NCBI RefSeq assembly: GCF_030384885.1
Contig: NZ_CP128613.1
Strand: one strand, 5' to 3'
Length of the DNA stretch: 64,000 nucleotides
From: Escherichia coli
Lineage (GTDB): Bacteria > Pseudomonadota > Gammaproteobacteria > Enterobacterales > Enterobacteriaceae
Shown here: positions 33,980 through 54,336 of the stretch, one piece after another
Layout of the letters: each line of letters begins with the position of its first letter
How positions within the stretch are numbered: the first letter of the stretch is position 1
Translations under genes and position numbers: made by a program
The notes under the pieces: model-generated
What the model was told of the DNA's origin: nothing
What the model saw: only the letters and a program-made list of their open reading frames with translations
Databases searched by the model: none

Positions 33980-34139
33980 CCATCAACGAAAAAGCCCACA
34001 TCTGTGGGCTTTCATATCACCAGGAGCCGCGGCTCCTTTGCGTATCCTTTTATGTCTCCTCACCGTCTGGTCGGTGTCTTGCTGAGACTTCTAACTTCCT
34101 GTTTTTGTTGGTGTTGTCCTTACACCGTCCAATCATGAT

Positions 34140-34183
34140 TGGTGGGCTGGCGGGAGTTGAACCCGCGTCCGAAATTCCTACAT
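34140..34183 (-). repeat. Partial direct repeat of ssrA 3' end (att site copy), one base shorter than the intact end
   Basis: tggtgggctggcgggagttgaacccgcgtccgaaattcctacat vs intact tggtggagctggcgggagttgaacccgcgtccgaaattcctacat at 48498. Confidence 0.75.
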
Positions 34184-34346
34184 ACTAATAATATATCTTT
34201 AAAATCAAAATATTCTATTATTTATCAATGTATTATGTTTATGTGGTGTTAAGGGGTTTATATGGGTTTTAGTTCTCTGCCGCCAAAATGCCGCCAAAAA
34301 AATTGAATGGTAAAACGCCAGTTCGTTGAACTGGCGAGATCTTGTC

Positions 34347-35114
34347 TTATTGTTTTATTATCTTAACGTGCGCCGTTCCTCCATTGACTTTTTCGAAATC
34401 TTGGAACAAGGCAGGGGCATCTTGAGTTACAATATCGTAAAGTTTTTCTGAAACTGTTCTCATTTCATAGTCACCCTGTATTGCTCCTCTCATTTCGAAG
34501 AAGTGTCGAATTGCGCGAGCATTTGCTGTGACGATTATTTTTGTCTCGGTTGCATTAGGCAATATAGAGCGAGAAGCGCTTCTTAAGGCCCGCATTTTTT
34601 CTTTTTTGTTCTCATACGATTGGTTTTCACGGATTTTTTTCAAGGATTGCTTATAAAAATCCAGACTACTTTCAATATGTTGGCACCATGACTTAAACAA
34701 TTCTGGGTCATTTTTTACTTCTATAGGGGCTACGAATTCAGCATCGGATTCATCATGATACTGTTGGGATAACTGGCTATATGAAAAACCAGCTCTATGC
34801 CGAACTAGCTGGTGTGTAAATGCACGAGATACCCCAGTAATTAAAAAGGTCCAGTTCAAATGTTCTAAGACACTTTCATGCCCTTGAATAATTAAATTGT
34901 TGATATATTGACTTGTAGTCCGTGGAGACTGCTTATCCTCTCCAAAAGACATATAACATAGCCTGCCAGCGGCCTCTACCAGAAGCTCAGCTTCGGTCGC
35001 CTGCCCTTTGCGAACCCATTGCAATGATGATGTGTTTAAAAAATCATCAAAAACATTACTTTCAAATGAAGGGTGTGATATGCATTTTACTGATAAATCA
35101 GAGATTTTTATCAT
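34347..35114 (-). CDS. thyX: Flavin-dependent thymidylate synthase ThyX
   Basis: 255 aa with ThyX signature RHRAGFSYSQLSQQY (RHRx7-8S...RY) and C-terminal ARAIRHFFEMR; AT-rich. Confidence 0.75.
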   Translation of the reverse strand: MIKISDLSVKCISHPSFESNVFDDFLNTSSLQWVRKGQATEAELLVEAAGRLCYMSFGEDKQSPRTTSQYINNLIIQGHESVLEHLNWTFLITGVSRAFTHQLVRHRAGFSYSQLSQQYHDESDAEFVAPIEVKNDPELFKSWCQHIESSLDFYKQSLKKIRENQSYENKKEKMRALRSASRSILPNATETKIIVTANARAIRHFFEMRGAIQGDYEMRTVSEKLYDIVTQDAPALFQDFEKVNGGTAHVKIIKQ

Positions 35115-35116
35115 TT

Positions 35117-35902
35117 TTACTCCCGTATAGCTTTTGGGGTGCTTACTTTAGCATCAACCTTTGGTTCGTTTGATTTAGCATTTTTTAGTAATTCAACGGT
35201 GCTTTTTAGGCTATTTATTTCATTTTGTTGAACTTTTATTGTTAATTCAAGATCTTTTGTACTACTGACATTACTGGATACTATTTGAAATAAGAAAGGA
35301 ATTGCTAGGGTTATCAACGTTAGCATTAAGGCTGCTATCGCAATTATAAAGCCAGTTTTTTTCGCAATGATTTTATTGATTTCTTTCGGAAGTCGTTTAT
35401 CAAGTCCTGCAAAATCCTTTCCCATTCTAGAAAGTTGATCATCATCCAATTTATTTACGATTTTTCCTTGGTAACCTTTAGTCGGTATTATTGTTTTAAA
35501 TAATAACATTCGGGCTACTGCTGAATTTTGTGTCAATGAGAATGGTTCTTTTGACATATTTACAAGATATATTGAAATTATGCCATTATATCCAGGGTCA
35601 ATATGCCCTGGATTCGTCATGATAATTCCATTTTTTGATAGTGTGTTTCTTGGAAATATTACACCAGCTAAATTTTTTGCAAGTTGGAATTTTTCATTTA
35701 ACTCTAATATTACAGTTTCCCCTGGCATCAGGATATGGTTGTTACGTGTTTTTTTATTGTCTTGACAGTCTGGTATATGTATTGTTTTTACAGAGAGATC
35801 AATGCTTGCAGATTGAACTTTAAATGTTCCATTTAATACCGTTAATGGATCAAAAATGTTGCCTCGCTGAATTTCATCATTGATTTCTATTTCAGACAGC
35901 AT
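35117..35902 (-). CDS. dCTP deaminase/dUTPase-fold (Dcd-like) domain protein with C-terminal TM helix and coiled-coil tail; catalytic Glu apparently replaced
   Basis: Aligns to E. coli Dcd: ASIDLSV / LMPGETVILEL / PRNTLSKNG / IDPGYNGIISIYLVN (Dcd has IDPGWSGCIVLEFYN); residues 185-210 hydrophobic (GFIIAIAALMLTLITLAIPFLF). Confidence 0.6.
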   Translation of the reverse strand: MLSEIEINDEIQRGNIFDPLTVLNGTFKVQSASIDLSVKTIHIPDCQDNKKTRNNHILMPGETVILELNEKFQLAKNLAGVIFPRNTLSKNGIIMTNPGHIDPGYNGIISIYLVNMSKEPFSLTQNSAVARMLLFKTIIPTKGYQGKIVNKLDDDQLSRMGKDFAGLDKRLPKEINKIIAKKTGFIIAIAALMLTLITLAIPFLFQIVSSNVSSTKDLELTIKVQQNEINSLKSTVELLKNAKSNEPKVDAKVSTPKAIRE

Positions 35903-35928
35903 ATCAAAATCCTATATTTGTAAAGTTA

Positions 35929-36942
35929 TTATAAATTAGCCAGAGGGTTTTTTATTACTGCATCTTCAAGATGCTCTGGGGAAAAATGTGCATAAATCAT
36001 AGTCATTTTTATATCAGAGTGGCCTAAAATATCTCGTAAAACCAAAATATTACCACCATTCATCATAAAATGGCTGGCGAATGTATGGCGCAGAACGTGA
36101 GTGCATTGGCCCTCTGGTAACTCAATGTCAGCTCGCTTTACTGCTCGTTCAAAGGCTTTTCTGCAAGGAGTGAATAACTTCCCTCTGTTCTTAGGGAGTT
36201 CGTCATACAGATCCTGAGATATCGGCACGGTACGGTTTTTCTTGCCCTTAGTCTTGGTATAGGTGATCCGGTATTTCGATAACTGATGGCCCTGCAGATT
36301 TTCGGCTTCACTCCAGCGCGCGCCGGTGGCCAGGCATATTTTTGTAATTAAAAGTAGACTGGGGCTTTGAGAATCAGCACAGGCATCCAGCAGACGTTTA
36401 ATTTCTTCCGGGGTCAGGAACGACAGTTCACCCTCAGCAATTTTAAATGTTGGCAGCCCGGCAAGCGGATTGGGGGCTGACCAGTGGCCCAACTTTTTCA
36501 GTGTGCCAAAAACAGATGATAGGTTGCGCTGTTCAAGGTTTACAGTGCGGGGCTTAACGGGCGACATAAGCGTGCCCTCTTCATTTCGCACTTCACCTTT
36601 TAGCCGCGCTTCTCGGTATTTAGTAAAATCACCGGCTGTCAGCTCTGAGGCGATGGGATCGCCTAGACCATTACAGATAATTCTAAGTTTCGCCATGAGG
36701 CGCTTGGGGTCTGCGAGTGTTTGACCATACAGGGAATACCACTGCTCAATTAATTCTGATAGGTGTCGCCGATCTTCCTTTTCCCCCAGCCATGGCTTTT
36801 TGTTCACTTCTTCCATTGTGAAGCTTTCAAAAGCAATGGCTTCGCCTTTCGTAGCAAATTGCTTACGCACGCGCTTGCCATTGCGTCCATGGGGATAGCA
36901 CTCGCACAACCATTTACCGTTTGGCTGTTTTCTGACAGTCAT
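35929..36942 (-). CDS. int: Tyrosine integrase, P2 family
   Basis: 337 aa; N-terminus MTVRKQPNGKWLCECYPHGRNGKRVRKQFATKGEAIAFE resembles P2 Int MAIKKLDDGRYEVDIRPTGRNGKRIRRKF...; C-terminal HxxR...Y catalytic region (HVLRHTFASH...MIYAH). Confidence 0.85.
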   Translation of the reverse strand: MTVRKQPNGKWLCECYPHGRNGKRVRKQFATKGEAIAFESFTMEEVNKKPWLGEKEDRRHLSELIEQWYSLYGQTLADPKRLMAKLRIICNGLGDPIASELTAGDFTKYREARLKGEVRNEEGTLMSPVKPRTVNLEQRNLSSVFGTLKKLGHWSAPNPLAGLPTFKIAEGELSFLTPEEIKRLLDACADSQSPSLLLITKICLATGARWSEAENLQGHQLSKYRITYTKTKGKKNRTVPISQDLYDELPKNRGKLFTPCRKAFERAVKRADIELPEGQCTHVLRHTFASHFMMNGGNILVLRDILGHSDIKMTMIYAHFSPEHLEDAVIKNPLANL

Positions 36943-36944
36943 GT

Positions 36945-37577
36945 TTAGATACTCTTTATTACTTTGACTGCACGCCCAATAACTTCCACATCATCAGTAG
37001 AGCACTCGAAAGACGCTTCATCTTGATTTACTACAATCTTATTGCCGGGAATCCGCATGATTTTTGCAACAATAATCATTCCATCAATATTGATAAGCCA
37101 GAATCCATTGCTGACCTGTTTAATTGATTTATCGATGAGATAACAATTAGTAGGGGTTTCTAAGAACATCAATTCTTCATAATCTGCAGGTAATATGCTG
37201 TGGTCTAGGAAAATCTCTTCATCAATACTGAGTTGTCCATTCTCCAGGGTTCCTTTAGGAATAGCTGGAGTTATGAGTTTGGATAACGGTTTAATTGCTT
37301 GTTTGTTCTCATTATGAGAACTTTTCTCAGGCTCAGCTCCTCCTTTCATGCTTCCCTGTCCTGTAGCTAACCAAAGCAACGAAACACCGGTTTCTAGTGC
37401 GCACTGAATTATCCAGTCAGCAGGAAAGCTGTCACGTAACACTCTGTTTGCCATAGTGCTTTTTGAGACATTCAGGTGCTCGCTTAATGCCTGCTTAGTT
37501 GTGAATCCATAAGCCTCAAGCAGCCTTTCAATAGCTGCCTTACCTCCCGTATCGGAACCCATTCTGATGTTTAACAT
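36945..37577 (-). CDS. CI-type immunity repressor (HTH N-domain + C-terminal oligomerisation domain, 186-like)
   Basis: 210 aa, HTH KQALSEHLNVSKSTMANRVLRD; located between int and divergent apl/cII as in coliphage 186. Confidence 0.65.
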   Translation of the reverse strand: MLNIRMGSDTGGKAAIERLLEAYGFTTKQALSEHLNVSKSTMANRVLRDSFPADWIIQCALETGVSLLWLATGQGSMKGGAEPEKSSHNENKQAIKPLSKLITPAIPKGTLENGQLSIDEEIFLDHSILPADYEELMFLETPTNCYLIDKSIKQVSNGFWLINIDGMIIVAKIMRIPGNKIVVNQDEASFECSTDDVEVIGRAVKVIKSI

Positions 37578-37698
37578 TGGTGATCTCCATTTGACAATCT
37601 TGAATCAAGATCGTAATGTCTTCATGTCTCTTGATGTGAGAGTTTAAGAGACGGGCTAAAACGAACTAACACGCACACAAAGTAAGAGATACTGCACT
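37578..37698. promoter_or_regulatory. Divergent lysogenic/lytic promoter-operator region between cI and apl
   Basis: Position by analogy with 186 pR/pL switch; inferred. Confidence 0.3.
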
Positions 37699-37941
37699 AT
37701 GAGTACTGATATTTCAATTCGTGTACCAAAAGAGATGGCTACGCCTGCAGAGTTCGCAGAGTGGGAGGGTATTTCCCGCGGCTCTGTTTACCAAAAAATT
37801 CACCATGGTCAACTTGCTAAGTACATGGTCAAGAAAGAAAAAAACAAAGGCCGCGTAAGCCTGCGTTATCTGATGTACAAAACCGATCAGGTCCGTGAAT
37901 CCCTCGGTCATTCCAACTTCCGCGTCATTGTTGGTAAGTAA
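37699..37941 (+). CDS. Apl/Cox-like small HTH excisionase-regulator
   Basis: 80 aa first gene of rightward operon; gene order int-cI / apl-cII. Confidence 0.5.
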   Translation: MSTDISIRVPKEMATPAEFAEWEGISRGSVYQKIHHGQLAKYMVKKEKNKGRVSLRYLMYKTDQVRESLGHSNFRVIVGK

Positions 37942-37973
37942 GTTCAATTATGGGAACTTTCTAAGGGGGCACC

Positions 37974-38483
37974 ATGTTTGATTACAAGATTTCCAAACAT
38001 CCGCATTTCGATGAAGCCTGTAGGGCTTTTGCACTGCGCCACAACCTGGTGCAACTGGCAGAACGTGCAGGCATGAATGTGCAGATTCTGCGGAACAAGC
38101 TGAACCCAGCTCAACCTCATTTATTAACTGCACCAGAAATCTGGTTGCTTACCGATCTGACTGAAGATTCAACGCTGGTAGATGGTTTTCTGGCTCAGAT
38201 TCACTGCCTGCCATGTGTACCGATTAATGAGGTGGCAAAAGAGAAACTGCCACATTACGTCATGAGTGCAACCGCAGAGATCGGGCGTGTCGCGGCAGGT
38301 GCGGTTTCTGGCGATGTAAAAACCAGTGCAGGCCGTCGTGATGCGATCAGCAGCATTAACTCTGTTACACGACTGATGGCGCTGGCTGCTGTTTCATTGC
38401 AGGCCCGTTTACAGGCTAATCCTGCGATGGCGAGTGCGGTTGATACCGTGACTGGCCTCGGTGCTTCATTCGGTTTGCTGTGA
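37974..38483 (+). CDS. CII-like lysogeny establishment activator (186 CII family)
   Basis: 169 aa, [45 protein letters not shown]... resembles 186 CII in length and sequence. Confidence 0.7.
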
Positions 38484-38490
38484 GGTGCTT

Positions 38491-38787
38491 ATGCTGATGA
38501 AAGAACCATCATTTGCATCGCTCCTGGTAAAACAAAGTCCGGCAATGCACTACGGTCACGGCTGGATCATGGGTGAGGATGGTAAACGCTGGCATCCGTA
38601 CCGTTCACAAGATGAATTGCTGTCTGAATTGACCACGAGGAAACGGAGAAAGTCCAAATGTATGCGGCAGAAAATAAAGTGGTTTATCACTTTCGTTACA
38701 GAGGGGAGAATTATTCAGTACCTGAAGATGATTTGCTCTGTTGCTATCCGTCGTTGTCGGGCGATGGTAGCTACTTTTTCACGCTAA
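38491..38787 (+). CDS. Small hypothetical early-operon protein (C-terminal part may be out-of-frame run-on)
   Basis: ATG 38491 MLMKEPSFASLLVKQSPAMHYGHGW...; overlaps next ORF in another frame. Confidence 0.3.
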   Translation: MLMKEPSFASLLVKQSPAMHYGHGWIMGEDGKRWHPYRSQDELLSELTTRKRRKSKCMRQKIKWFITFVTEGRIIQYLKMICSVAIRRCRAMVATFSR

Positions 38788-38882
38788 AGGATGGAACCTT
38801 TATACGTGGTGAAAAAGTACAAGAAGTGATGCGTATAAAGACATCACCTCTTGAACGTTATCGGCGAAATATTTATCGGTAA
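38658..38882 (+). CDS. Hypothetical 74-aa phage protein
   Basis: MYAAENKVVYHFRYRGENYSVPEDD...; protein-like composition. Confidence 0.4.
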   Translation: MYAAENKVVYHFRYRGENYSVPEDDLLCCYPSLSGDGSYFFTLKDGTFIRGEKVQEVMRIKTSPLERYRRNIYR

Positions 38883-39121
38883 CGATCTATCAGTGTCTGT
38901 ATCAGATGAGTGAATTCTTGTTGTTTAACCGAACCTAAAGGAAGTTTGTTTAATTCTTCGCGGAGGAGCTCAAAAAATGCTGATTGATTTGCTGAGTCAG
39001 TTCGAAATAAGGAGTGGATCAGACCTGAAACAAGAATTCGTTGAACAGCAACCTCATCGCGAAGACTGGAGATCTCGTTTTCAAGTTGCTCTATACGCTC
39101 TCTTTCAACCGGGTTCAACAT
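38873..39121 (-). CDS. Hypothetical 82-aa coiled-coil protein, opposite orientation to the early operon
   Basis: MLNPVERERIEQLENEISSLRDEVAVQRIL...; antisense partner ORF looks like junk. Confidence 0.3.
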   Translation of the reverse strand: MLNPVERERIEQLENEISSLRDEVAVQRILVSGLIHSLFRTDSANQSAFFELLREELNKLPLGSVKQQEFTHLIQTLIDRYR

Positions 39122-39202
39122 TGATGATTCCTTCTAGCTATCAATATGTTGGTAATGGATCATATCAAAAATTTTTTAGTAGATGTGTTGTGGGATGCAT
39201 AA

Positions 39203-39544
39203 ATGGCTATTGAAGGCACTGCGGCGACTGTTCCATTAAGCCCCGGTGAACGCCTGAATGGACTTAATCACATTGCGGAGTTAAGGGCGAAAGTTTTTGG
39301 CCTGAATATTGAGTCAGAGCTTGAGCGGTTTATTAAAGATATGCGTGATTCACGGGATATTAATAGCGAACAAAATAAACGGGCACTGGCTGCCATATTC
39401 TTTATGGCAAAAATTCCAGCTGAACGTCATAGCATCAGCATTAATGAGCTGACCACTGACGAAAAGCGGGAGTTGATTAAAGCAATGAATCATTTTCGTG
39501 CAGTGGTGAGCTTATTTCCCAGACGGCTAACCATGCCGAATTAA
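39203..39544 (+). CDS. Hypothetical 113-aa phage early protein
   Basis: ORF with start near SD; unknown function. Confidence 0.45.
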   Translation: MAIEGTAATVPLSPGERLNGLNHIAELRAKVFGLNIESELERFIKDMRDSRDINSEQNKRALAAIFFMAKIPAERHSISINELTTDEKRELIKAMNHFRAVVSLFPRRLTMPN

Positions 39545-39605
39545 CCAACTAATGAAATTAATGGCGTAAACCCGCCGGGCATCCCTTTATCTAAATTCAG
39601 GAGAA

Positions 39606-39845
39606 TTGATTATGCGTAATATTGAAACCCTCTCGACCAAAACCGGACCGGATGACGCAGGGCTTAATATTTTACTGACAGAGGCTCGTCTGGAAGAACG
39701 CCGGGCAAGGGCTGAAGCAATGGCAGCTCGCCTTGATAGCCTGGCGTGTCATATCACATCCCGCCAGCTAACCCACGTCGAAGCGGCAGAACTGCTTCGT
39801 GTGACTGCTGAAGCAATCCAGAACGAAGCGCAGGAGATCCACTGA
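39606..39845 (+). CDS. Hypothetical 79-aa phage early protein
   Basis: ATGA-coupled to following traR-like gene. Confidence 0.45.
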   Translation: MIMRNIETLSTKTGPDDAGLNILLTEARLEERRARAEAMAARLDSLACHITSRQLTHVEAAELLRVTAEAIQNEAQEIH

Positions 39846-40072
39846 TGGCTGATGCAATGGATCTCGTACAGCAGCGCGTTGAAGAAGAACGCCAACGCCA
39901 TATCCGTGCTGCCCGTGCCAAAACGCCGGGCGTGTCCCGCGTGCTTTGCATTGAGTGTGAAGCGCCAATTCCGCCAGCACGCCGCCGTGCCATTCCGGGT
40001 GTGCAGCTTTGCATTACCTGTCAGGAAATCGCAGAGCTGAAAGGCAAACATTACAACGGAGGTGCTGTATGA
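39845..40072 (+). CDS. TraR/DksA-family C4 zinc-finger protein
   Basis: 75 aa with CIECEAPIP...CITCQ four-Cys finger. Confidence 0.7.
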   Translation: MADAMDLVQQRVEEERQRHIRAARAKTPGVSRVLCIECEAPIPPARRRAIPGVQLCITCQEIAELKGKHYNGGAV

Positions 40073-40926
40073 GCACCATCCTGAAATGGGCGGGAAATAA
40101 AACTGCCATAATGTCCGAACTGAAAAAACATCTTCCTGCTGGCCCGCGACTGGTTGAACCTTTCGCGGGTTCCTGTGCTGTGATGATGGAGACGGATTAT
40201 CCCAGCTATCTGGTTGCGGATATTAATCCTGATTTAATCAACCTCTATAAAAAGGTTGCCGCTGATTGTGAATCGTTTATATCTCGCGCCAGAGTTTTAT
40301 TTGAGATCGCAAACAGGGAGGTGGCTTATTACAACATAAGGCAGGAGTTTAATTACTCAACTGAAATTACTGATTTCATGAAAGCGGTATATTTCCTGTA
40401 TCTCAATCGTCACGGTTACCGTGGTTTATGTCGCTATAACAAGAGCGGGCATTTCAACATTCCCTACGGTAATTATAAAAATCCGTATTTCCCTGAAAAA
40501 GAAATTCGCGCATTTGCAGAAAAGGCCCAGCGAGCAACGTTTATCTGCGCCAGCTTTGATGAAACGCTGGCGATGTTGAAGGCGGGGGATGTGGTGTATT
40601 GCGATCCGCCGTATGACGGTACGTTTTCCGGCTATCACACTGACGGCTTCACTGAAGATGACCAGTATCACCTGGCATCTGTTCTTGAACATCGGTCATC
40701 AGAAGGACATCCGGTCATTGTTTCTAACAGTGACACATCCCTGATCCGTTCGCTGTATCGCAATTTTACTCACCACTACATCAAGGCAAAACGCAGCATC
40801 GGTGTGGCAGCTGGCGAGGGTAAATCAGCAACAGAAATCATTGCTGTTTCCGGGCCGCGCTGCTGGGTGGGATTTGATTATTCGCGTGGCGTGGATAGTT
40901 CTGCCGTGTACGGAGTACGTGCATGA
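40069..40926 (+). CDS. dam: N6-adenine DNA methyltransferase (Dam/D12 class)
   Basis: [11 protein letters not shown]... N-terminal SAM-binding FxGxG-like region and DPPY motif ([10 protein letters not shown]); start overlaps traR-like stop (ATGA), stop overlaps repA start. Confidence 0.8.
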
Positions 40927-43337
40927 GTCATGCCGATATGAACAACTGCTGCGGCTTTAACGAAGCTGCCGCATCGTTCTCATGGAACAGCCCGAAAAAG
41001 GCCATTAACCCTTATCTGGACCCGGCGGAAGTTGCGCCGGTTTCTGCGCTTTCAAACCTGATCACTCTGTACGCTACTGATAACGAGCAGGAACAACTGC
41101 GCCGCGAGGCACTGAGTGATCAGGTCTGGGAGCGTTATTTCTTTAATGAATCCCGTGATCCTGTCCAACGCGAAATGGAGCAGGATAAGCTCATTAGCCG
41201 GGCAAAGATGGCGCATGAGCAGCAGCGTTTTAATCCAGACATGGTCATTCTGACTGACGTCAACGCCCAGCCTTCCCATATCAGCAAGCCGCTGATGCAA
41301 CGTATTGAATATTTCAGCAGCCTGGGCAGGCCAAAGGCTTATTCCCGCTATTTGCGTGAGACGATTAAGCCATGTCTGGAACGACTGGAGCATGTACGCG
41401 ACAGCCAGCTATCTGCATCTTTTCGTTTTATGGCAAGCCATGAAGGGCTGGACGGTCTGCTGATCCTGCCTGAAATGAGTCAGGATCAGGTGAAACGCCT
41501 GTCTACCCTTGTCGCTGCGCATATGAGCATGTGTCTTGATGCCGCTTGTGGTGATTTGTACGCCTCCGATGATGTTAAGCCAGAAGAAATCCGCAAGACA
41601 TGGGAAAAGGTGGCTGCAGAAACCCTGCGACTGGATGTCATACCGCCTGCGTTTGAGCAACTCCGCCGGAAAAGAAACCGCCGCAAACCTGTGCCTTATG
41701 AACTCATTCCGGGTTCGCTGGCGCGTATGCTGTGCGCCGACTGGTGGTATCGGAAATTATGGAAGATACGTTGCGAATGGCGGGAAGAGCAGTTGCGTGC
41801 TGTCTGCCTGGTCAGCAAAAAAGCATCTCCCTATGTCAGCTATGAAGCCGTGATGCATAAACGTGAGCAGCGCCGTAAGTCGCTGGAGTTTTTCCGTTCT
41901 CATGAACTGGTGAACGAAGACGGCGACACGCTGAACATGGAGGATGTGGTAAACACCAGCAGCAGCAACCCGGCGCATCGCCGCAACGAGATGATGGCCT
42001 GTGTTAAAGGCCTAGAGCTTATCGCGGAAATGCGTGGTGACTGCGCCGTTTTCTACACCATCACCTGTCCGTCACGTTTCCATTCCACGCTAAATAACGG
42101 CAGGCCAAACCCGACCTGGACCAACGCGACAGTAAGACAAAGCAGCGATTATCTGGTCGGCATGTTTGCTGCATTTCGTAAGGCTATGCACAAAGCCGGG
42201 TTGCGCTGGTATGGCGTGCGGGTGGCTGAGCCGCATCATGACGGCACAGTTCACTGGCACCTGTTGTGTTTCATGCGCAAAAAAGACCGCCGCGCCATTA
42301 CTGCATTGTTGCGTAAGTTTGCCATCCGTGAAGACCGCGAGGAGCTGGGCAATAACACGGGGCCACGCTTTAAGTCTGAGCTGATAAACCCGCGCAAAGG
42401 AACGCCGACAAGCTACATTGCGAAATATATCAGTAAGAATATTGACGGGCGTGGTCTGGCTGGCGAGATCAGTAAGGAAACGGGTAAATCCCTGCGTGAT
42501 AACGCTGAATACGTTAATGCCTGGGCGTCTCTGCATCGTGTTCAGCAATTCCGCTTCTTTGGCATTCCGGGGCGTCAGGCTTACCGTGAACTGCGATTGC
42601 TGGCTGGTCAGGCGGCAAGGCAACAGGGTGACAAAAAAGCAGGTGCGCCGGTACTGGATAACCCGCGCCTTGATGCCATCCTGGCTGCTGCTGATGCTGG
42701 TTGTTTTGCCTCCTACATCATGAAGCAGGGCGGCGTACTGGTTCCCCGCAAATATCACCTCATCAGAACCGCTTATGAAATCAACGAAGAGCCGACCGCC
42801 TATGGCGATCACGGTATTCGTATTTATGGCATCTGGTCACCCATTGCAGAGGGCAAGATCTGCACTCATGCAGTGAAGTGGAAAATGGTTCGTAAGGCCG
42901 TTGACGTTCAGGAGGCGGCAGCCGACCAGGGCGCTTGCGCCCCTTGGACTCGTGGCAATAACTGTCCCCTTGCTGAAAATTTGAACCAACAGGAGAAAGA
43001 TAAATCAGCTGATGGGGACACCAGAACGGACATTACCCGCATGGATGACAAGGAGTTGCACGATTACCTGCACAGTATGAGCAAAAAAGAGCGCCGGGAA
43101 CTGGCTGCAAGGTTACGCCAGGTGAAACCGAAACGGCGTAAAGACTACAAACAGCGAATTACAGACCATCAGCGACAGCAGCTCGTCTATGAACTGAAGT
43201 CCAGGGGATTTGATGGCAGTGAGAAAGAAGTCGATTTGCTCCTTCGCGGTGGCAGTATTCCGTCAGGAGCAGGCCTGCGTATTTTCTATCGGAACCAGCG
43301 TCTGAAGGAAGATGATAAGTGGCGGAACCTGTATTAA
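40923..43337 (+). CDS. P2 gpA-like rolling-circle replication initiation endonuclease
   Basis: 804 aa; HUH-type motif [10 protein letters not shown] and double-tyrosine motif YIAKYISK as in P2 A/phiX174 A proteins. Confidence 0.85.
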
Positions 43338-43489
43338 TTACGCGGGTTAACAATTCGTGCCCTTAATAATACCAGGCATATCAGGCTGATGAATGTAAAA
43401 AAACGTTTTACATCAGTAAGATTATTATATACTGTAAATATAAACAGTGGTTATCTATACAGTATTGCTTTGGTGTCATAGGAGGAAAG

Positions 43490-43678
43490 ATGCAGGACTA
43501 TTTTTTGGAGTCTTTGAAGCTCCAGCGCATTGATTTTTTTCTTAAGCTTGTAGCGGCTAGTGAGTGTAGTGATGAAGAGAAGGGGCTGGCTCTGCAGTGG
43601 GTTTCTGAACTGACAGATGAACTCATGGCAAAAATCAGAACCCACGAATACAACCGCTCAATGGATGTCATCAGCTGA
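43490..43678 (+). CDS. Hypothetical 62-aa protein
   Basis: Small ORF preceding dinI-like gene. Confidence 0.3.
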   Translation: MQDYFLESLKLQRIDFFLKLVAASECSDEEKGLALQWVSELTDELMAKIRTHEYNRSMDVIS

Positions 43679-43688
43679 GGTGACTTTT

Positions 43689-43922
43689 ATGCGCATTGAA
43701 ATAATGATCGATAAAGAGCAGAAGATTAGCCAGTCTACCCTGGACGCCCTTGAATCCGAGCTTTACCGCAATCTGCGCCCCCTGTATCCCAAAACGGTAA
43801 TCCGTATCCGTAAAGGTAGCTCTAACGGTGTGGAACTGACCGGACTGCAACTGGACGAAGAAAGAAAACAAGTGATGAAAATTATGCAGAAGGTGTGGGA
43901 AGACGACAGCTGGCTGCATTGA
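43689..43922 (+). CDS. DinI-family DNA-damage-inducible protein
   Basis: MRIEIMIDKEQKISQSTLDALESELYRNL...WEDDSWLH parallels DinI MRIEVTIAK...LSRR...WESADDW. Confidence 0.7.
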   Translation: MRIEIMIDKEQKISQSTLDALESELYRNLRPLYPKTVIRIRKGSSNGVELTGLQLDEERKQVMKIMQKVWEDDSWLH

Positions 43923-44035
43923 TTTTGTCAATAGACGCTTGTTTTTACTAATCAAAAAGGGTTACATATGAGTGAGAGGCGATGTCAATCAGATATCGCC
44001 TTGTTTTTTGTCAAGAAAAGAATAATAGGCTAAAA

Positions 44036-44713
44036 ATGAAAATTAATAATGTAGCGTTACCAATATCTCTTGCTGTAATCCTAACTGGTTGCGTGCCACA
44101 TGCTTCTAACCGAAATATCACTGCTATTGAAGTGGTGAAGCCTGCTATTGGGCAAAGTGCTACCGCCTACATGGGCGATCCCATTATCACATCTGCTACT
44201 GGATTTAAAACGGACGTACTAGAACTTGGTGCGGCTAATGGTGCATTGTCTTCTATCGCTGCTGGTACATATTGCAGTGAGGGGAATGGAATTTACCGCA
44301 ATTATCATAACCCTCAAGCTGTTGCGTTAAAAAATCTCTATGGGCAAATCGGTAACTATGTTGATTATGTTAGTTACGATGCTGCAAAAAATGAGATATC
44401 ACCGCCAAATGGTACTTCTTATACTGCATCAGAAATTTCTATCAAACGTGTTCCTGATGGGCTGTGTCGAGTTAGTAACTCATTGGTTAAGACTATCGAA
44501 TACAATGGAAATGCAGGCGGTGTAATGAAGTTCACCTATCGTGAATTTGCAAACGATATGGCTCGTGCAGCATTTACAACAGATTTTTCTGTAGATTCTA
44601 AGGGAAGTGACGTTATCGCTTACAAAGGTGCCAAGTTCAAAGTGAACAAGGCTGATAACTCGTCTATTTCTTATACAATTATTTCTGGCTTTGACAAGGC
44701 TGTCACGTTCTAG
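44036..44713 (+). CDS. Lipoprotein of unknown function (prophage hotspot cargo)
   Basis: MKINNVALPISLAVILTGC lipobox (LTGC); ~33% GC; start alternative 43982. Confidence 0.6.
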   Translation: MKINNVALPISLAVILTGCVPHASNRNITAIEVVKPAIGQSATAYMGDPIITSATGFKTDVLELGAANGALSSIAAGTYCSEGNGIYRNYHNPQAVALKNLYGQIGNYVDYVSYDAAKNEISPPNGTSYTASEISIKRVPDGLCRVSNSLVKTIEYNGNAGGVMKFTYREFANDMARAAFTTDFSVDSKGSDVIAYKGAKFKVNKADNSSISYTIISGFDKAVTF

Positions 44714-45038
44714 GTTTCACGCTTACTGAGTATGTTACGATTTTGCACATTCTGCATAAACGCGCATGTCTATGCTGCATGAGATCGCATGATCGTTTGA
44801 GGATCTTTTGTGTTAAGGCCCGCCAGTTCTGGCGGGCTTTTGCGTAGATCATGCAGGTGCATGAAAACCACTACATAAAGCGGGCAGGCGTGGCGGGGAT
44901 ACGAGCGCGCGTTATGACAAATAGATGATTAGCCTGATTTATTCACAGCTGTATAAATGATCACCTTGTAATTAGGTAAGTAATGTCTTCTATTATCATT
45001 GATTTGATAGGATTAATCTGTTTTTTGAGGATTAGAGG

Positions 45039-47375
45039 ATGATTGAAGAGGTAGTTATTGACAAAGTAGGCTCATATAATGGCCCTACTCAGCTTTTACA
45101 TGGGCTTTCTAAATTTAACTATTTATATGGAGCTAATGGTGCAGGTAAAACAACTATAAGTAAAATTATTAATGACCCTGAACAATATCCAACATGTCCG
45201 ATTAAATGGAAAAATAATATATCTTTAATAAGCTACGTATATAATAAAGATTTTGTTGAAAGAAATTTTAGTCAAGATAAAATTAAAGGTGTATTTACCC
45301 TTGGTAGCGATCTTAAGGAGGATGAAGAGAAATTAATATCTCTTGAAGAAGAAAAAAATAAGCTAATAGAATCTATTATAGCAAAGGAAAAGCTAATAGA
45401 TGGTGGTGATAATATATTAGGCGTTGTTAAACAAATCGAAGACCATGAAAAATCTTTTAAAGATTCATGTTGGAAGCAAAAAGTAAAACATGATAATGTG
45501 TTCTCAAAGGCTTTTGAGGGATTAAGGAATAGTAGTGAAAAATTTAAAGCTAGAGTGTTGGCTGAGTATGAAAATAACACATCAGAAGTTTGCTCAATAG
45601 CAGAGCTAATTGAGAAAGCAAAAATTGTTTTTTCTACTGAATTGACATCACATGTATCAATTACAATTCCATCCTTCAATGGGATAGATGATATTTTGAG
45701 TAGGGAGATTTGGAGTGAGCGTATTCTAGGGAAAAAAGACGTTAGTGTTTCAGACTTAATTACAATGCTCAATAACAGTGATTGGGTTAAGGAAGGTTTA
45801 ACATATTTCAGTAAATCTAATCCCAAGTGCCCATTCTGCCAGCAGGATGTAAATGATAATATATTTGATAATCTATCATCATATTTTGATAAAACATATG
45901 AGTTAAAAAAAAGAGAAATCGATGCATTGGTTTTACAATATGAACATCAACTTAATAATATCTTGCAGGCGATAGATGATATAAGGGCGATTAAATCTCC
46001 ATTCATAAATTATGAAGTGTTTGAGGATAAGGCTAAGATAGTATTATCTGAATTAAACAAGAATTTTGAATTGGCAAAAAATAAACGCAATTTTTTAAGT
46101 GAATCAGTTCATTTTAGTGACTTAAGTGAAGTTGTTGATGATTTTATTTCTTTTTTGAATGATTCAAATCTATTGATAGATAATAATAACAAAATACACA
46201 GTAATAGAAAGGTAGAGGCTAGTAATCTTTCTAATCAGATATGGGCATATATCGTAAAGGTGGAGTTAAAGTCTGAAATAACTTCTTACCGTAGCGAATC
46301 TGATAAATTTAATAGGAAGTTACAAGGGCTTAAATCTGGGTTAGAGGAAGACAAAAAGAAGTTAATGTTAAATGCTTCGGCTATTGAGGCAATTGAGTCT
46401 AATAAAACCAGTACTCTTCCAACTATTACAAAAATTAACAAGATTCTGGATTCTTATGGCTTCAAAAATTTTTACTTAAAACCCTCCGAAGATAAAAAGC
46501 ATTATATGATAGTGAGAGATAGTGGAGATAATGCTCGTACAACCCTTAGCGAGGGAGAAAAGACATTTATCACTTTTTTGTATTTTTATAGCCTTGTTAG
46601 AGGGAGTGATAATGCATCAGGTGTTTTAGATGATCGTGTTGTAGTATTTGATGATCCAATTTCAAGTTTAGATAGTGATATTCTGTTTATTGTAAGTTCG
46701 TTGATTAAAGATTTAATGGAGGATGTTCGTAAGGATGAAGGAAATATTAAGCAAATTATATTCCTTACACATAATATTTATTTTCATAAAGAGTTGACTT
46801 TTAATACTAAAAGATCCGGTAATCAAGCAATGAAAGAGGAGACTTTTTGGATTGTAAGGAAAAAAGGGAAGGTCTCATATCTTGAAAAGTGCGAATCAAA
46901 CCCAATAAAAACGTCTTATGATTTGCTCTGGTGCGAATTGAGAAGAACAGATATTAATAATAATACTATACAAAATACAATGCGAAGGATTTTGGAGAAT
47001 TACTTTAAGATATTAGGTGGGATGGATATTAGGAAGCTTGAATGTCATTTTTATGGTGATGAAAAAATCATATTTAAATCTTTAGTGTCATGGATTAATG
47101 ATGGTTCTCATTTTGCAGGTGATGATCTTTATATGAATTTAGATACGGAGTCTGTGCAAAAATATTTAATTGTTTTTCAGAAGATATTTGAGTGTAGTGA
47201 GCATACTGCCCATTACAAAATGATGATGGGTGAGTTTTATAGACCGTTAAATGAGTCACTTCATCTACAAGATGAGTTTGATATTGATGATAGTGCGAAT
47301 GATGAGTATGCTTCGTCAAAAATTGAGATAGAAGATGGAATAAACACATCTCTACATAGTAATACATATTTGTAA
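45039..47375 (+). CDS. RloC/PrrC-like ABC-ATPase with coiled-coil/CxxC hook insertion and C-terminal putative anticodon-nuclease domain (candidate anti-phage/abortive-infection protein)
   Basis: Walker A GANGAGKTT; signature LSEGEK; Walker B/D-loop VVVFDDPISSLD; H-loop FLTHN; ~450-aa K/E-rich insert containing KCPFCQ; C-terminal MRRILENYF...WINDGSHF (R...Nx3H); ~30% GC. Confidence 0.65.
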   Translation: MIEEVVIDKVGSYNGPTQLLHGLSKFNYLYGANGAGKTTISKIINDPEQYPTCPIKWKNNISLISYVYNKDFVERNFSQDKIKGVFTLGSDLKEDEEKLISLEEEKNKLIESIIAKEKLIDGGDNILGVVKQIEDHEKSFKDSCWKQKVKHDNVFSKAFEGLRNSSEKFKARVLAEYENNTSEVCSIAELIEKAKIVFSTELTSHVSITIPSFNGIDDILSREIWSERILGKKDVSVSDLITMLNNSDWVKEGLTYFSKSNPKCPFCQQDVNDNIFDNLSSYFDKTYELKKREIDALVLQYEHQLNNILQAIDDIRAIKSPFINYEVFEDKAKIVLSELNKNFELAKNKRNFLSESVHFSDLSEVVDDFISFLNDSNLLIDNNNKIHSNRKVEASNLSNQIWAYIVKVELKSEITSYRSESDKFNRKLQGLKSGLEEDKKKLMLNASAIEAIESNKTSTLPTITKINKILDSYGFKNFYLKPSEDKKHYMIVRDSGDNARTTLSEGEKTFITFLYFYSLVRGSDNASGVLDDRVVVFDDPISSLDSDILFIVSSLIKDLMEDVRKDEGNIKQIIFLTHNIYFHKELTFNTKRSGNQAMKEETFWIVRKKGKVSYLEKCESNPIKTSYDLLWCELRRTDINNNTIQNTMRRILENYFKILGGMDIRKLECHFYGDEKIIFKSLVSWINDGSHFAGDDLYMNLDTESVQKYLIVFQKIFECSEHTAHYKMMMGEFYRPLNESLHLQDEFDIDDSANDEYASSKIEIEDGINTSLHSNTYL

Positions 47376-47386
47376 TTTTATTGCAA

Positions 47387-47416
47387 TTGCCAGTAGCAAC
47401 AATACGGTACTGGCAA
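47387..47416. terminator. Hairpin between convergent RloC-like gene and portal fragment (possible bidirectional terminator)
   Basis: ttgccagta-gcaacaatacgg-tactggcaa 9-bp stem flanked by T/A runs. Confidence 0.35.
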
Positions 47417-47424
47417 CTAATATT

Positions 47425-47823
47425 TTAGTTAAGCTCATATGGAGAAAATTCTATAAGTTTCTCCCCGAGCCATGCGTTTATTTCCATAAATCGTTTTTGC
47501 AAAGGAATTAATTCATTTATCACAAAAACCTTACTAGCCTTCTCCACATCCCCAAACCCCCCAACATTATTAGGCATTATCCCCATCATTTGCGGCGGCA
47601 CACGGTGTGCCGCCATCATGTCGTCCCGGCTCACGTTCTTGATATTCAGAAACTCATCCTTCGCCGCGACTTCTGACAACGGGATAATCTGAAGCCCGTC
47701 CTTTTTGCCGTTAGGAGAGTACATAAACAGGTTGCGGAAGTTGCCTGGCCCTTTGGCACTTTTCATTGCGTTGCGGAGGTTGTTCACATCTTCTTGGTTC
47801 TGTGCGGCATCGGTCATGTACAT
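47425..47823 (-). pseudogene. Phage portal-like (P2 gpQ-like) C-terminal fragment; upstream part disrupted
   Basis: 132-aa ORF ...RVPPQMMGIMPNNVGGFGDVEK... oriented toward the hotspot as Q is relative to old/cos in P2; coding continues upstream only with frame breaks. Confidence 0.4.
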
Positions 47824-48153
47824 GATGAAACCTGCATGGCTGCCGTTGATGTAATACTTACGGCGGAACAGTGTGGCGGACTCGTTGAGCAGGGCTGACG
47901 GGATGGCAGAGAGATAACCTGGCAGGCCGTAGATCTCCTGGTTGATGTCCGGTTCCGCCCTTAATCATCTCAACCATGCGTTACAGCTCGATCCCCGCTG
48001 TGGCGTGAAAAAAGACAAACAGCAGCTGGAGCGCAGACTGCGCAATGACAGCCGCTGACAGAACGTGCCCCCGCGCACGGGCGGCACGGGGTGGCGAAAG
48101 GCACAGCCACATCAAAACCCCGTCCACCGCCCTTTATTTCAGGAGAAAGCAGC

Positions 48154-48357
48154 ATGAAGTTTGTTGCGCCAGAACAGGCACCGGAACAGGCGGAAATCAT
48201 CAGAAACACGCCGTTCTGGCCTGATGTGGACCTGTCGGAGTTTCGCAGTGTCATGCGCACTGACGGCACGGTGACGCAGCCGCGTTTAAAGCAGGTTGCG
48301 CTGTCGGCAATTTCGGAGGTCAACGCACCGATACGACCATTTGCATTGATGTAAACA
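48154..48357 (+). pseudogene. Short phage-derived ORF fragment adjacent to ssrA
   Basis: MKFVAPEQAPEQAEIIRNTPFWPDVDLSEFRSVMRTDGTVTQPRLKQ...; GC-rich unlike neighbouring cargo; likely truncated. Confidence 0.3.
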
Positions 48358-48446
48358 AAGTGAAGTTCTTCCATGTGAAACCTCTTTGCATGATTTCAAG
48401 ATGGCGACAGGCAAGATGGACGCAAAAGTCTGTCGCCATTTTGCCG

Positions 48447-48497
48447 CCACTACCAAAGAAAAAGGGGCTACGCTTTCACGTAACCCCTTGATTTATT
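48447..48497 (-). terminator. ssrA rho-independent terminator
   Basis: On minus strand: ggggttacgtgaaagcgtagcccc hairpin followed by TTTTT immediately after the CCA end. Confidence 0.6.
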
Positions 48498-48860
48498 TGG
48501 TGGAGCTGGCGGGAGTTGAACCCGCGTCCGAAATTCCTACATCCTCGGTACTACATGCTTAGTCAGTCTTTACATTCGCTTGCCAGCTGCGGACGGACAC
48601 GCCACTAACAAACTAGCCTGATTAAGTTTTAACGCTTCAACCCCAGGCAGGGCTTCCACGCGATCTCTTTTGGGTTTGACCTCTCTTGATCCCCGTCCTA
48701 AGAGCGGAGGCTAGGGAGAGAGGGCTCTAAGCAGGTTATTAAGCTGCTAAAGCGTAGTTTTCGTCGTTTGCGACTATTTTTTGCGGCTTTTTACGAGGCC
48801 AACCGCCCCTCGGCATGCACCTTGGGTTTCGCAAATCCCGTCGAATCCAGAATCAGCCCC
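48498..48860 (-). ncRNA. ssrA: tmRNA (transfer-messenger RNA, 363 nt)
   Basis: Reverse complement reads GGGGCTGATTCTGGATTCGACGGG...ANDENYALAA tag reading frame...GGTTCAACTCCCGCCAGCTCCACCA, matching E. coli ssrA end to end. Confidence 0.95.
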
Positions 48861-49074
48861 AATGTGTAACGGTAAGTATACCAGATTCATGAGTGCCATG
48901 ACCAGCCTCAATGGCGTTATCGTTAAAGATTTAGCACCCGTGTAGCCTGATATTTATTCGATTAAGCAATGGGATGGCAACATTTGGGTCGGATGTGATA
49001 GCCAATAAGATGTTCATTCGCGCCGCCGGAGAGGGTGGCGCGGTGAGGAACTGGTCAATAATTGGAGTGCAGAT

Positions 49075-49557
49075 TTAACGGTGGGCGTTTTTCATGATAC
49101 GCGCTTTATCCACCTGCCATTCGCGTTCTTTGATGTCTGAACGTTTATCGTGCTGTTTCTTACCTTTAGCGACGCCGATTTTCACTTTGCACCAGGCATT
49201 TTTCCAGTACAGGGAGAGCGCCACTACGGTATAGCCTTCTCGATTGACGCGACCGTACAATGAGTCCAGTTCGCGCTGGTTGAGAAGTAACTTGCGGGTA
49301 CGGGTAGGATCGCACACCACATGCGTGGATGCCACAGCCATTGGCGTGATGTTAGCGCCAAACAGAAATGCTTCTCCATCACGTAGAAGGACGTAGCTGT
49401 CGCTGATATTGGCTTTTCCTGCGCGCAGGGATTTAACCTCCCAGCCTTGCAGGGCAAGTCCCGCTTCGAACTCTTCTTCGATAAAGTATTCGTGACGGGC
49501 GCGCTTGTTAAGCGCGATGGTCGCTGAACCAGGTTTATGTGCTTTTTTCTTCGTCAT
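49075..49557 (-). CDS. smpB: SsrA-binding protein
   Basis: 160 aa [28 protein letters not shown]... Confidence 0.95.
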
Positions 49558-49688
49558 AAGCGTCGTGAATCATCGGTAATCTGAAATCGAAAACACCCCA
49601 TATCAATCCTGCGGGGGACAAGGCTCTATCTTAGCATGAACCCGATGTTACCCAGCGCCGGGATAGCGTTTTTTTTACAGCAGGATAA

Positions 49689-50165: not shown

Positions 50166-50445
50166 AATTGCCGTTGAGGTGGCTTATGCTCTACCTGAGA
50201 AGCAGTACCTGCAGCGCGTGACGCTGCAGGAGGGCGCGACGGTTGAAGAAGCTATTCGCACCAGTGGCTTGCTGGAATTGCGTACCGATATCGATTTAAC
50301 TAAAAACAAAGTCGGCATTTACAGCCGTCCGGCAAAACTGAGCGATACCGTGCATGATGGCGATCGGGTGGAGATTTATCGTCCTCTCATTGCCGATCCG
50401 AAAGAGCTTCGCAGGCAACGAGCAGAAAAATCAGCGAATAAATAA
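50155..50445 (+). CDS. ratB: RatB (YfjF/PasI) small protein, GTG start overlapping ratA end
   Basis: [27 protein letters not shown]... 96 aa in frame of ORF 50071..50445. Confidence 0.75.

Positions 50446-52743: not shown

Positions 52744-54336
<1,593 letters not shown>

Follow-up and report, generated by a model that had tools for sequence, protein, structure and literature searches.

A prophage remnant occupies the 3' end of ssrA

The 64-kb stretch of E. coli DNA analyzed here (the window) contains a 14.4-kb element that spans positions 34140-48545, between an intact ssrA gene and a second, 47-nt copy of its 3' end (Table 1). The original prediction had described this copy as a 44-nt partial repeat. 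The repeat is present, but 44 nt is the stretch up to the mismatch; read by eye, the full length is 47 nt at the left end and 48 nt at the right, and the longest ungapped match covers 41 nt at 98% identity (34146-34186 versus 48505-48545). A 27-nt att core occurs exactly twice in the window, where shuffled sequences gave an expectation of zero. Copies of the ssrA 3' end likewise number only two, which rules out a tandem array of islands at ssrA, and Rfam searches detected no other RNA genes within the element.

Two results establish that the left repeat is a recombination junction, as had been proposed. First, homology to the closest complete genome, E. coli 2013C-4282, extends to position 34139, carries on over another 13 nt at the start of the repeat (TGGTGGGCTGGCG), and then diverges into a 2013C-4282 island. 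Second, joining the ends of the element rebuilt the attP of the virion-sequenced phage Cartapus in a collinear alignment, in which some 168 nt, core included, are nearly identical (~99%) and both arms contain TGCCGCCA motifs. The motif lies at an equal distance in Cartapus attP, and its tandem copies in the int-side arm are a candidate Int arm site. The 1-nt deletion in the attL core relative to attR could lower the efficiency of excision.

The first 13 nt of attL (34140-34152) are also identical to K-12 psaA, the attR scar of CP4-57. CP4-57, the K-12 ssrA island with a P4-type IntA, occupies the same locus between ssrA and ypjA and shares this scar, and 2013C-4282 carries a CP4-57-type island there, but our element lacks intA, alpA, and other CP4-57 genes. 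Thus, as originally claimed, ssrA is occupied by a prophage remnant flanked by att repeats rather than by CP4-57, of which only the psaA scar is present, as a record of earlier CP4-57-type occupancy of ssrA.

Table 1. Positions of genes, sites, and deletion junctions at the ssrA locus.
Feature	Position	Strand	Remarks
attL core, displaced copy of ssrA 3' end	34140-34186		47 nt versus 48 nt in attR; one A missing, one mismatch
int-side att arm	34187-34346		tandem TGCCGCCA at 34278 and 34289
ThyX-type flavin thymidylate synthase homolog	34347-35114	minus	255 aa
dCTP-deaminase/dUTPase-fold protein	35117-35902	minus	261 aa
int, tyrosine integrase	35929-36942	minus	337 aa; Pfam
CI repressor	36945-37577	minus	210 aa; Phage_CI_repr + Phage_CI_C
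Apl/Cox-like excisionase-repressor	37699-37941	plus	80 aa; PHROG/Pfam search
CII	37974-38483	plus	169 aa; Phage_CP76
Fil cell-division inhibitor, long variant	38491-38787	plus	98 aa
ORF in post-fil insert	38658-38882	plus	74 aa; phrog_4312
Variable insert relative to RE-2010	38660-39201		0.54 kb
ORF in post-fil insert	38873-39121	minus	82 aa; phrog_26925
DUF5347	39203-39544	plus	
DUF2732	39612-39845	plus	
TraR/DksA zinc finger	39845-40072	plus	
dam, Dam-type N6-adenine methyltransferase	40069-40926	plus	285 aa
GpA replication initiator	40923-43337	plus	804 aa; Phage_GPA E=7e-127
LexA box	43430-43449	plus	TACTGTAAATATAAACAGTG; CTGT-N8-ACAG pattern
62-aa ORF and DinI-like protein	43490-43922	plus	phrog_698; DinI-like protein at 43689-43922
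Conserved phage ORF	43982-44713	plus	phrog_1353
cos region	44790-44911		Cartapus linear genome ends contiguous here, junction at about 44854/44855
AAA_13 ATPase	45039-47375	plus	778 aa; PADLOC candidate defense protein PDC-S06
Portal gene fragment	47425-47955	minus	residues about 169-344 of 346
Deletion junction 1	47948-47956		microhomology CCGG(C)TTCC
M 3' end, intergenic region, start of L	47954-48326	plus	M to 48055; first ~58 codons of L from 48154
Deletion junction 2	about 48326/48327		
Start of Cartapus-gp32-like gene	48327-48374	minus	first 16 codons (MEELHFVYINANGRIG)
ssrA-side att arm	48375-48497		phage-derived, downstream of ssrA; TGCCGCCA at 48442
attR core	48498-48545		last 48 nt of ssrA
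ssrA (tmRNA)	48498-48860	minus	intact; ARAGORN + Rfam; 295.8 bits, model positions 1-374 of 374

A complete early region with an SOS module and cos

Pfam and PHROG profile searches identified every early gene that had been named beforehand (int, a CI-like repressor, apl, cII, a TraR-like zinc finger, dam, and gpA with HUH and YxxKYxxK motifs, which read HWH and YIAKYISK in the GpA translation), and domain matches bore out a 186-type CI/Apl/CII switch in a P2-family remnant. The gpA gene is full length, as in RE-2010 and Cartapus, and presumably contains the replication origin, by analogy with P2. All other retained ORFs of the element are also full length.

Downstream of gpA, a LexA box precedes a Tum/DinI-like pair of genes; elsewhere in the window its pattern occurs only once, upstream of recN. 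We infer that the 62-aa ORF and the DinI-like protein constitute a split Tum-like SOS module. The product of the 62-aa ORF matches no Pfam family, and we take it to be an antirepressor by analogy with 186. The phrog_1353 ORF that follows encodes a lipoprotein-like signal ending in LTGC, provided that translation starts at an internal Met. The cos of the element matches the annotated cos of Cartapus plus its left flank; an approximate P2/186 cohesive-end sequence used as a query matched neither the window nor RE-2010. The AAA_13 ATPase is a full-length match to the PDC-S06 model (residues 1-733; E=1.5e-266) and is a candidate defense cargo protein, by sequence, in the hotspot between gpA and the portal gene.

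Late-gene fragments mark two deletions

A tblastn search of the window with 25 late proteins of RE-2010 returned just three fragments: residues 169-344 of the portal protein, 183-216 of the terminase small subunit M, and 1-63 of the head-completion protein L. Intact Q-P-O-N-M-L head operons, a lysis cassette, tail genes, D, and ogr were absent across the 64 kb, in agreement with the claim that capsid, tail, and lysis genes are missing. A portal-like fragment and one further fragment next to ssrA had also been noted; both exist, and the second proved to consist of the end of M, the start of L, and 16 codons of a gene like Cartapus gp32.

These fragments define two deletions. The first, between portal codon ~168 and M codon ~183, took out about 5.6 kb. 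The second starts at L codon ~58 and stops at codon 16 of the final gene ahead of attR, and with it went the lysis, tail, D, and ogr genes. Its size, about 16-17 kb, was estimated from RE-2010 and Cartapus, as the parental loci that we retrieved cover the part before the tail genes, and it may comprise more than one event. Because two internal junctions connect phage segments that are not normally adjacent, the element could in principle be an assembly artefact or a composite of two unrelated elements. Both junctions are present, however, in five independent Logan short-read assemblies at 99.94-100% identity, which rules out mis-assembly, there are only two att copies, and every segment is collinear with a single parent phage. 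We assign this explanation a negligible chance of being correct.

The element is a Fels-2-like member of the Peduoviridae

The element is a defective member of the Fels-2/RE-2010/Cartapus-type Peduoviridae and is not specifically P2- or 186-like. The original label 'P2/186-like' holds for the P2 family and for the 186-type switch, but the nearest relatives are RE-2010 and Cartapus. The top phage matches were these two and Klebsiella prophages; 186 and P2 gave no close DNA match. The element has in common with coliphage 186 the CI/Apl/CII/Fil switch type and, with both 186 and P2, a GpA rolling-circle initiator and cos packaging. Both of the P2-family hotspots (gpA-portal and att-int) are occupied. 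By contrast, the integration site is ileY/ileX for 186 and elsewhere again for P2, whereas the element lies at ssrA.

RE-2010, a Salmonella phage (Felsduovirus), is 94-97% identical to the element and collinear with it from int to fil and from DUF5347 to cos, also has att repeats of the ssrA 3' end, and displays the same order: att, cargo, int, cI, apl, cII, fil, DUF5347, DUF2732, TraR, dam, gpA, orf, dinI, cargo, portal. It differs in being complete (34.1 kb), in having an 84-bp repeat versus 47 nt, in lacking the 0.54-kb insert after fil, and in its cargo (gp01 beside att and, ahead of the portal gene, an AIPR protein). Cartapus, an Escherichia phage (Elveevirus), has a nearly identical attP over the ssrA-side arm and core, the same cos, the same early gene order, and a gp32 gene, of which 16 codons survive in the element; unlike the element, it is complete (33.4 kb) and carries a RES-domain cargo gene (gp33) by int and DUF4145 after cos.

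The placement of int at the end away from ssrA, with cargo genes separating it from the repeat, had been called unusual. This view does not stand: RE-2010, Cartapus, and the E. coli TUM12355 and MINF_1D elements have the same layout, with a cargo gene in the att-int interval, and that interval is listed in PMC13586616 as a P2 defense hotspot, holding 3% of P2 systems. An ssrA-distal int with att-int cargo is therefore the norm in this group.

A near-identical parent dates the truncation

Among the matches listed, a copy in GCA_903932185.1, one of at least 13 such places, differs from our sequence at just 2 of the 17,034 nt that stretch from the ypjA flank to position 47956 in the portal gene. 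This copy occupies the same chromosomal site next to ypjA, carries the same cargo, and continues beyond 47956 with a full portal gene (343 aa), terminase, scaffold, capsid, and M, within which the locus stops. A second locus, in GCA_028611705.1, shows a single mismatch over 11,918 nt, and the segment corresponding to 47948-48327 lies some 5.6 kb further on. To judge from their sequences, such copies represent an apparently complete parent, intact through the head genes. So small a difference from a parent at the same site means that the truncation is very recent. Very probably, then, the element is a defective Fels-2-like prophage in the ssrA 3' end, derived very recently and in place from a prophage that was apparently complete and belonged to the same E. 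coli lineage. Two simple deletions, each at a short microhomology, would explain its origin and would have left a complete early half, comprising both att cores and arms, int, CI/Apl/CII, fil, dam, gpA, the LexA-boxed Tum/DinI-like pair, cos, and three variable cargo loci.

The original prediction favored a domesticated core, in which selection keeps a regulatory and replication module with two cargo positions as a stable island of benefit to the host. Consistent with that idea, all retained ORFs are full length, and TUM12355, the closest match among complete E. coli genomes, contains a second, independently truncated copy with different deletions, in which int, CI, and both cargo loci survive as well. 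A class of defective P2-like prophages whose defense genes are intact is, moreover, described under cryptic islands in PMC13586616; in that account core genes are lost or pseudogenized and cargo is intact, as in our element and its TUM12355 sister. The same account names gpA as the commonest core pseudogene, whereas our element has lost late genes alone and retains an intact gpA within an intact early region. Three observations nevertheless make domestication very unlikely. First, a full-length parent with the same site and flank is only 2 mismatches away in 17 kb, which leaves no time for selection to act or show; the retained genes are intact because the deletion is recent, and selection is not demonstrably the cause. 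Second, apl is frameshifted and gpA truncated in TUM12355, so the 'core' is not the conserved part. Third, a search of 5,426 complete E. coli genomes found no copy covering 80% or more of the element. The same remnant, which had been proposed as something to look for in other Escherichia genomes, thus appeared in no complete E. coli genome; both of its junctions were found in the five Logan assemblies.

Truncated P2-family prophages with retained cargo are already described, and the element, which arose recently as a clonal variant of a phage in circulation, carries little weight in itself. The truncated copy and its full-length parent in near-identical hosts do, however, form a natural matched pair, which can be used to ask what a lysis-less, cos-bearing half-prophage, predicted to be SOS inducible, does once induced.

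Predicted behavior of the remnant

Judging by homology to 186 and P2, the remnant should be SOS inducible and should excise and replicate, but yield no virions. In a resting cell, its CI would hold the early operon off and confer immunity to homoimmune phages, and cargo genes would be expressed to the benefit of the host. DNA damage would cause cleavage of LexA, turning on the antirepressor and inactivating CI, after which Apl and Int would excise a 14.4-kb circle that GpA would replicate. Neither virions nor lysis would be expected to follow, as late activator, capsid, tail, and lysis genes are absent.

Could the element be an incipient satellite? In that reading, a Fels-2/P2-type helper, either co-resident or superinfecting, would provide Ogr, capsid, and terminase in trans, package the circle, and pass it on to other cells. 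The match to the cos and left flank of Cartapus, the intact att arms, and the full-length int, apl, and gpA genes would all suit this role. No determinant of capsid size or helper-activating gene (sid, psu, delta) is present, however; a search for P4-like satellite genes (P4-type integrase, alpha primase-helicase, psu/delta/sid) found none, and all ORFs longer than 70 aa fall in other families. In addition, 14.4 kb is less than half a Peduoviridae genome and would require multimer packaging in the manner of P2/P4, and the immunity conferred by CI would shut out homoimmune helpers. We consider a satellite role improbable and favor a recently truncated, defective prophage.

An unusual pair of cargo genes between att and int

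The sole unusual part of the element is the att-int cargo pair, a membrane-anchored dUTPase-like protein and a ThyX homolog. The latter exceeds the TIGR02170 cut-off (154.8 bits versus 87.9) and, where the family signature is RHR...S.RY, reads RHRAGFSYSQLSQQY, with Q in place of an R of M. tuberculosis ThyX (SQQY versus SQRY); SQQY is invariant in four cassette partners. The other protein, of trimeric-dUTPase fold, has a C-terminal transmembrane helix and a coiled coil, and lacks the deaminase catalytic Glu: where ITLELFN of 4xjc has its Glu, all members of the family have Y, C, or T. It scored 56 bits against the NCBIfam dCTP_deam model, under the cut-off of 92.8. This score, the missing Glu, and the lack of a PADLOC match argue against an anti-phage dCTP deaminase. 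The thymidylate synthase system DS-4 of DefensePredictor is also different, being of ThyA type (PF00303) and accompanied by a kinase and a TIR domain.

Neither gene matched PADLOC v2 or an NCBIfam defense family (the NCBIfam matches were thyX itself and dCTP-deaminase/dUTPase models under cut-off), and the literature searched contained no description of the pair. Tentatively, and at somewhat less than even chances in our estimate, the dUTPase-fold membrane protein and the ThyX with its altered substrate motif could form an unrecognized two-gene anti-phage or nucleotide-pool system. The att-int cargo may represent a new defense cassette; it is rare, widely dispersed, and found beside defense genes, and it would be cheap to clone and test. 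It occurs in 1 of 5,426 complete E. coli genomes, and the two genes are kept adjacent in E. coli, Morganella, Citrobacter, Brenneria, Pantoea, Shewanella, and Pseudomonas, where they reside in P2 and P4 hotspots or as ICE cargo. Their neighbors elsewhere include NsnAB, a DpdF/GajB-like helicase, and components of gop-beta-cll.

Bounds, gene content and layout of the element

The window contains a full-length tmRNA gene (ssrA, called by ARAGORN and Rfam) whose 3′ end has a second copy at 34140-34186. A repeat search of the window aligned 41 ungapped nt at 98% identity; by direct reading, the repeats span 47 and 48 nt and differ by one missing A and one mismatch. Because the window has exactly two occurrences of a 27-nt core (compared to 0 in 100 shuffles), the two copies bracket a single element at 34140-48545, as expected from the original prediction of an element bounded by the ssrA 3′-end repeat. 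When joined, the element ends correspond to the attP region of Escherichia phage Cartapus (Elveevirus): over ~168 nt that take in the ssrA-side arm and core, the two sequences are near-identical (~99%), and the int-side arm has diverged, with a CTCTGCCGCCAAAATG(C/T)CGCCA motif kept at the same distance. In the window, the ends of the linear Cartapus genome meet at about 44854/44855, and cos is therefore retained.

Thus bounded, the element contains the complete early half of a phage, with both att arms and cos. All seven genes named from the sequence alone, int, cI, apl, cII, TraR-like, dam and gpA, were found at full length. In megablast searches of phage records, Salmonella phage RE-2010 (Felsduovirus) ranked first, with Cartapus close behind, and the element is collinear with the RE-2010 prophage record. 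The predicted absence of late genes also held: in tblastn searches of 25 RE-2010 late proteins against all 64 kb, the only matches were fragments of the portal (residues 169-344), terminase-M (183-216) and head-completion-L (1-63) proteins, and no other late protein of this set matched.

Features of the element and its surroundings (window positions; RE, RE-2010 record)
Feature	Position	Strand	Remark
tRNA-Met (CAT)	26188-26263		ARAGORN
Left ssrA repeat	34140-34186		
dUTPase-fold/ThyX cassette	34347-35902	minus	
int	35929-36942	minus	full length
int to fil	35945-38660		RE 1438-4150, 94%
cI	36945-37577	minus	full length
apl	37699-37941		full length
cII	37974-38483		full length
0.54-kb insert	38660-39201		two small ORFs
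DUF5347 to cos	39201-44911		RE 4146-9856, 97%
TraR-like zinc finger	39845-40072		full length
dam	40069-40926		full length
gpA	40923-43337		full length; HWH and YIAKYISK visible in translation
LexA box	43430-43449		
LexA box, 62-aa ORF and DinI-like gene	43430-43922		
phrog_1353 ORF	43982-44713		
AAA_13 ATPase	44912-47491		different cargo from RE-2010
Portal fragment	47492-47956		RE portal
End of M, start of L	47954-48326		RE 17150-17520
gp32-like gene, first 16 codons	48327-48374		Cartapus gp32
ssrA-side att arm	48430-48542		RE right end
ssrA	48498-48860	minus	full length

The location of int distal to ssrA, with cargo between int and the repeat, had been considered unusual. The same order of att, cargo, int and cI, with ogr proximal to ssrA, is shared by RE-2010 (gp01), Cartapus (gp33), TUM12355 and MINF_1D. 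Moreover, of the P2 defence hotspots, gpA-portal is the main one and the att-int interval a minor one, with 3% of systems (PMC13586616). This integrase type is present in 191 of 5,426 complete E. coli genomes. The remnant is an ordinary object, with a known attachment site and a layout standard for its family.

Compared to RE-2010, the insert between fil and DUF5347 contains two small convergent ORFs of 74 aa (phrog_4312) and 82 aa (phrog_26925). This insert is a third variable locus of the element and falls in the int-gpA interval, another minor hotspot (PMC13586616). Just upstream of cos, the phrog_1353 ORF is conserved in phages and has a lipoprotein-type signal (…LTGC) if translated from an internal Met; no gene is annotated in the homologous stretch of the RE-2010 record (about 8927-9856, within the 97% block).

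Origin of the remnant

The remnant is clonal and derives, by two recent deletions, from a Fels-2-like prophage that is in circulation. The host flanks match E. coli 2013C-4282 (100% identity over the smpB-recN flank, 49000-53000; 99.9% over the ypjA-side flank, 25500-34139), identifying the host as E. coli, whereas ssrA of 2013C-4282 holds a CP4-57-type intA island rather than the Fels-2-like remnant. The remnant was present in 0 of the 5,426 complete E. coli genomes searched, and at least nine Logan contigs contain a chimeric ORF spanning junction 2 (47970-48374), where L joins the gp32-like gene. The five contigs compared are 99.94-100% identical to the window over both junctions, and the structure is therefore real and common to several sequenced isolates.

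The parent was identified by exact-protein look-ups with AAA_13 and gpA. From inside ypjA to 47956, GCA_903932185.1 (L046) differs from the window by 2 mismatches in 17,034 nt, a match that spans attL, the dUTPase-fold/ThyX pair, int, the whole early region and the AAA_13 gene; past this point it continues through a 343-aa portal and then terminase, scaffold, capsid and M. In GCA_028611705.1 (L037), with 1 mismatch in 11,918 nt, sequences corresponding to window 47948-47956 and 47948-48327 lie about 5.57 kb apart. Junction 1, which joins portal to M, falls within 8-9 nt of imperfect microhomology, CCGG(C)TTCC; at junction 2, just 2-3 bases are shared. Deletion 2 starts at L codon ~58, extends to the final gene ahead of attR and is estimated, by analogy with RE-2010 and Cartapus, at about 16-17 kb, the parent sequence compared ending within M. 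With a full-length copy this similar in the same chromosomal setting, the proposal of a domesticated regulatory/replication core is unsupported: a recent deletion leaves ORFs intact, and the intact ORFs are thus no evidence of selection.

E. coli TUM12355 (NZ_CP134376.1, 1229938-1245968) carries a sister remnant that comes from the same phage: the int side is 99.7% identical, and both the ThyX cassette and the AAA_13 cargo are shared. The deletions in this sister remnant differ from those in the window and are independent: gpA is N-terminally truncated, apl is frameshifted, portal and the tape-measure gene are fused, and U, D and ogr are retained. A second integrase island is arranged in tandem with it. 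The full-length relatives L037-L046 have an additional 235-aa Terminase_6N ORF between portal and the 588-aa large terminase (about 12415-13122 in L037), which resembles a partially duplicated terminase N-terminal domain.

The left repeat records earlier events at ssrA. Its first 13 nt, TGGTGGGCTGGCG (34140-34152), share a 1-nt deletion (one A) with the K-12 psaA pseudogene (2473-2486 in the K-12 locus L028), which is the attR scar of CP4-57; 34 nt matching ssrA follow, and the same 13 nt occur at the end of the 2013C-4282 intA island. This scar points to an earlier CP4-57-type island at ssrA, and the left repeat fits a compound junction in which such an island may have been lost before or after Fels-2-like integration. 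The repeat of a related full-length prophage (L045, 99.5% identity) lacks the 1-nt deletion, which is therefore polymorphic among carriers. The tRNA-Met (CAT) gene near ygaQ and ypjA appears unoccupied; from its position, it is probably ileY, the phage 186 attachment site.

Predicted response to DNA damage

The sequence TACTGTAAATATAAACAGTG is a perfect LexA box, positioned 40 nt ahead of a 62-aa ORF that is followed by a DinI-like gene. The one other CTGT-N8-ACAG in the window is at recN, a known SOS gene that serves as a positive control. In phage 186, the Tum antirepressor is under LexA control and Apl acts as an excisionase; in P2, the replication origin is inside gene A. The 62-aa ORF and DinI-like gene look like Tum split in two, and this LexA-boxed module predicts that the remnant is SOS-inducible. 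By analogy with 186 and P2, DNA damage would derepress the 62-aa/DinI pair, CI would then be inactivated, and Apl, CII, Fil, Dam and GpA would be produced. Int and Apl would excise a 14.4-kb circle for replication by GpA. Because Ogr and the capsid, tail and lysis genes are absent, neither packaging nor cell lysis would be expected. A satellite-like fate, with a helper packaging the circle through the retained cos, is a possible but improbable alternative. In the repressed state, CI should confer immunity against homoimmune phages and the cargo genes would work for the host.

Cargo genes

The 778-aa AAA_13 ATPase matches the PADLOC candidate PDC-S06 end to end (E=1.5e-266), and an identical protein is found in many full-length prophages of the same Fels-2-like group.

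The dUTPase-fold/ThyX cassette is the one lead from the remnant worth experiment. The first protein has a dCTP-deaminase/dUTPase fold, with the bifunctional DCD-DUT enzymes 4xjc and 4a6a as best structural matches; after the fold comes a single long helix (residues 167-244) with a hydrophobic membrane segment and coiled coil. The Glu of ITLELFN in 4xjc, taken by homology to be E138 (E. coli) or E145 (M. jannaschii), which is mutated in several solved deaminase structures, is Tyr in the window's protein and Tyr, Cys or Thr, but never Glu, across the family. The RefSeq name 'dCTP deaminase domain-containing protein' should therefore not be taken as deaminase activity. The second protein scores as ThyX above NCBI's cut-off. 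Its signature is RHRAGFSYSQLSQQY, compared to RHR-HFSYSQLSQRY in M. tuberculosis ThyX; SQQY replaces SQRY, with no variation at this Q among the Citrobacter, Pseudomonas and Morganella partners.

Neither protein had a PADLOC v2 match, and the pair did not turn up in literature searches. The DefensePredictor thymidylate synthase system was rejected as a match, being ThyA-type and unrelated. An anti-phage or nucleotide-pool role is plausible but unproven, and we suggest it tentatively.

Cassette DNA is present in 1 of 5,426 complete E. coli genomes, and a wider collection has the exact protein in 252 blocks. Rare in E. coli, the cassette is scattered over Enterobacterales and Pseudomonas, where it lies in P2/P4 hotspots, in ICE cargo and near known defence genes, and it occurs in seven further loci (L012, L013, L014, L017, L021, L024 and L026). 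Its genes are adjacent in every context with the downstream gene visible. These contexts include ICE cargo, a site adjoining NsnA/NsnB, a position with a DpdF/GajB-like giant helicase on one side and a PDC-M54A-like NTPase on the other, a P4-like island where gop-beta-cll components and HipA are neighbours, the end of a Pantoea P2-like prophage, and a lone islet.
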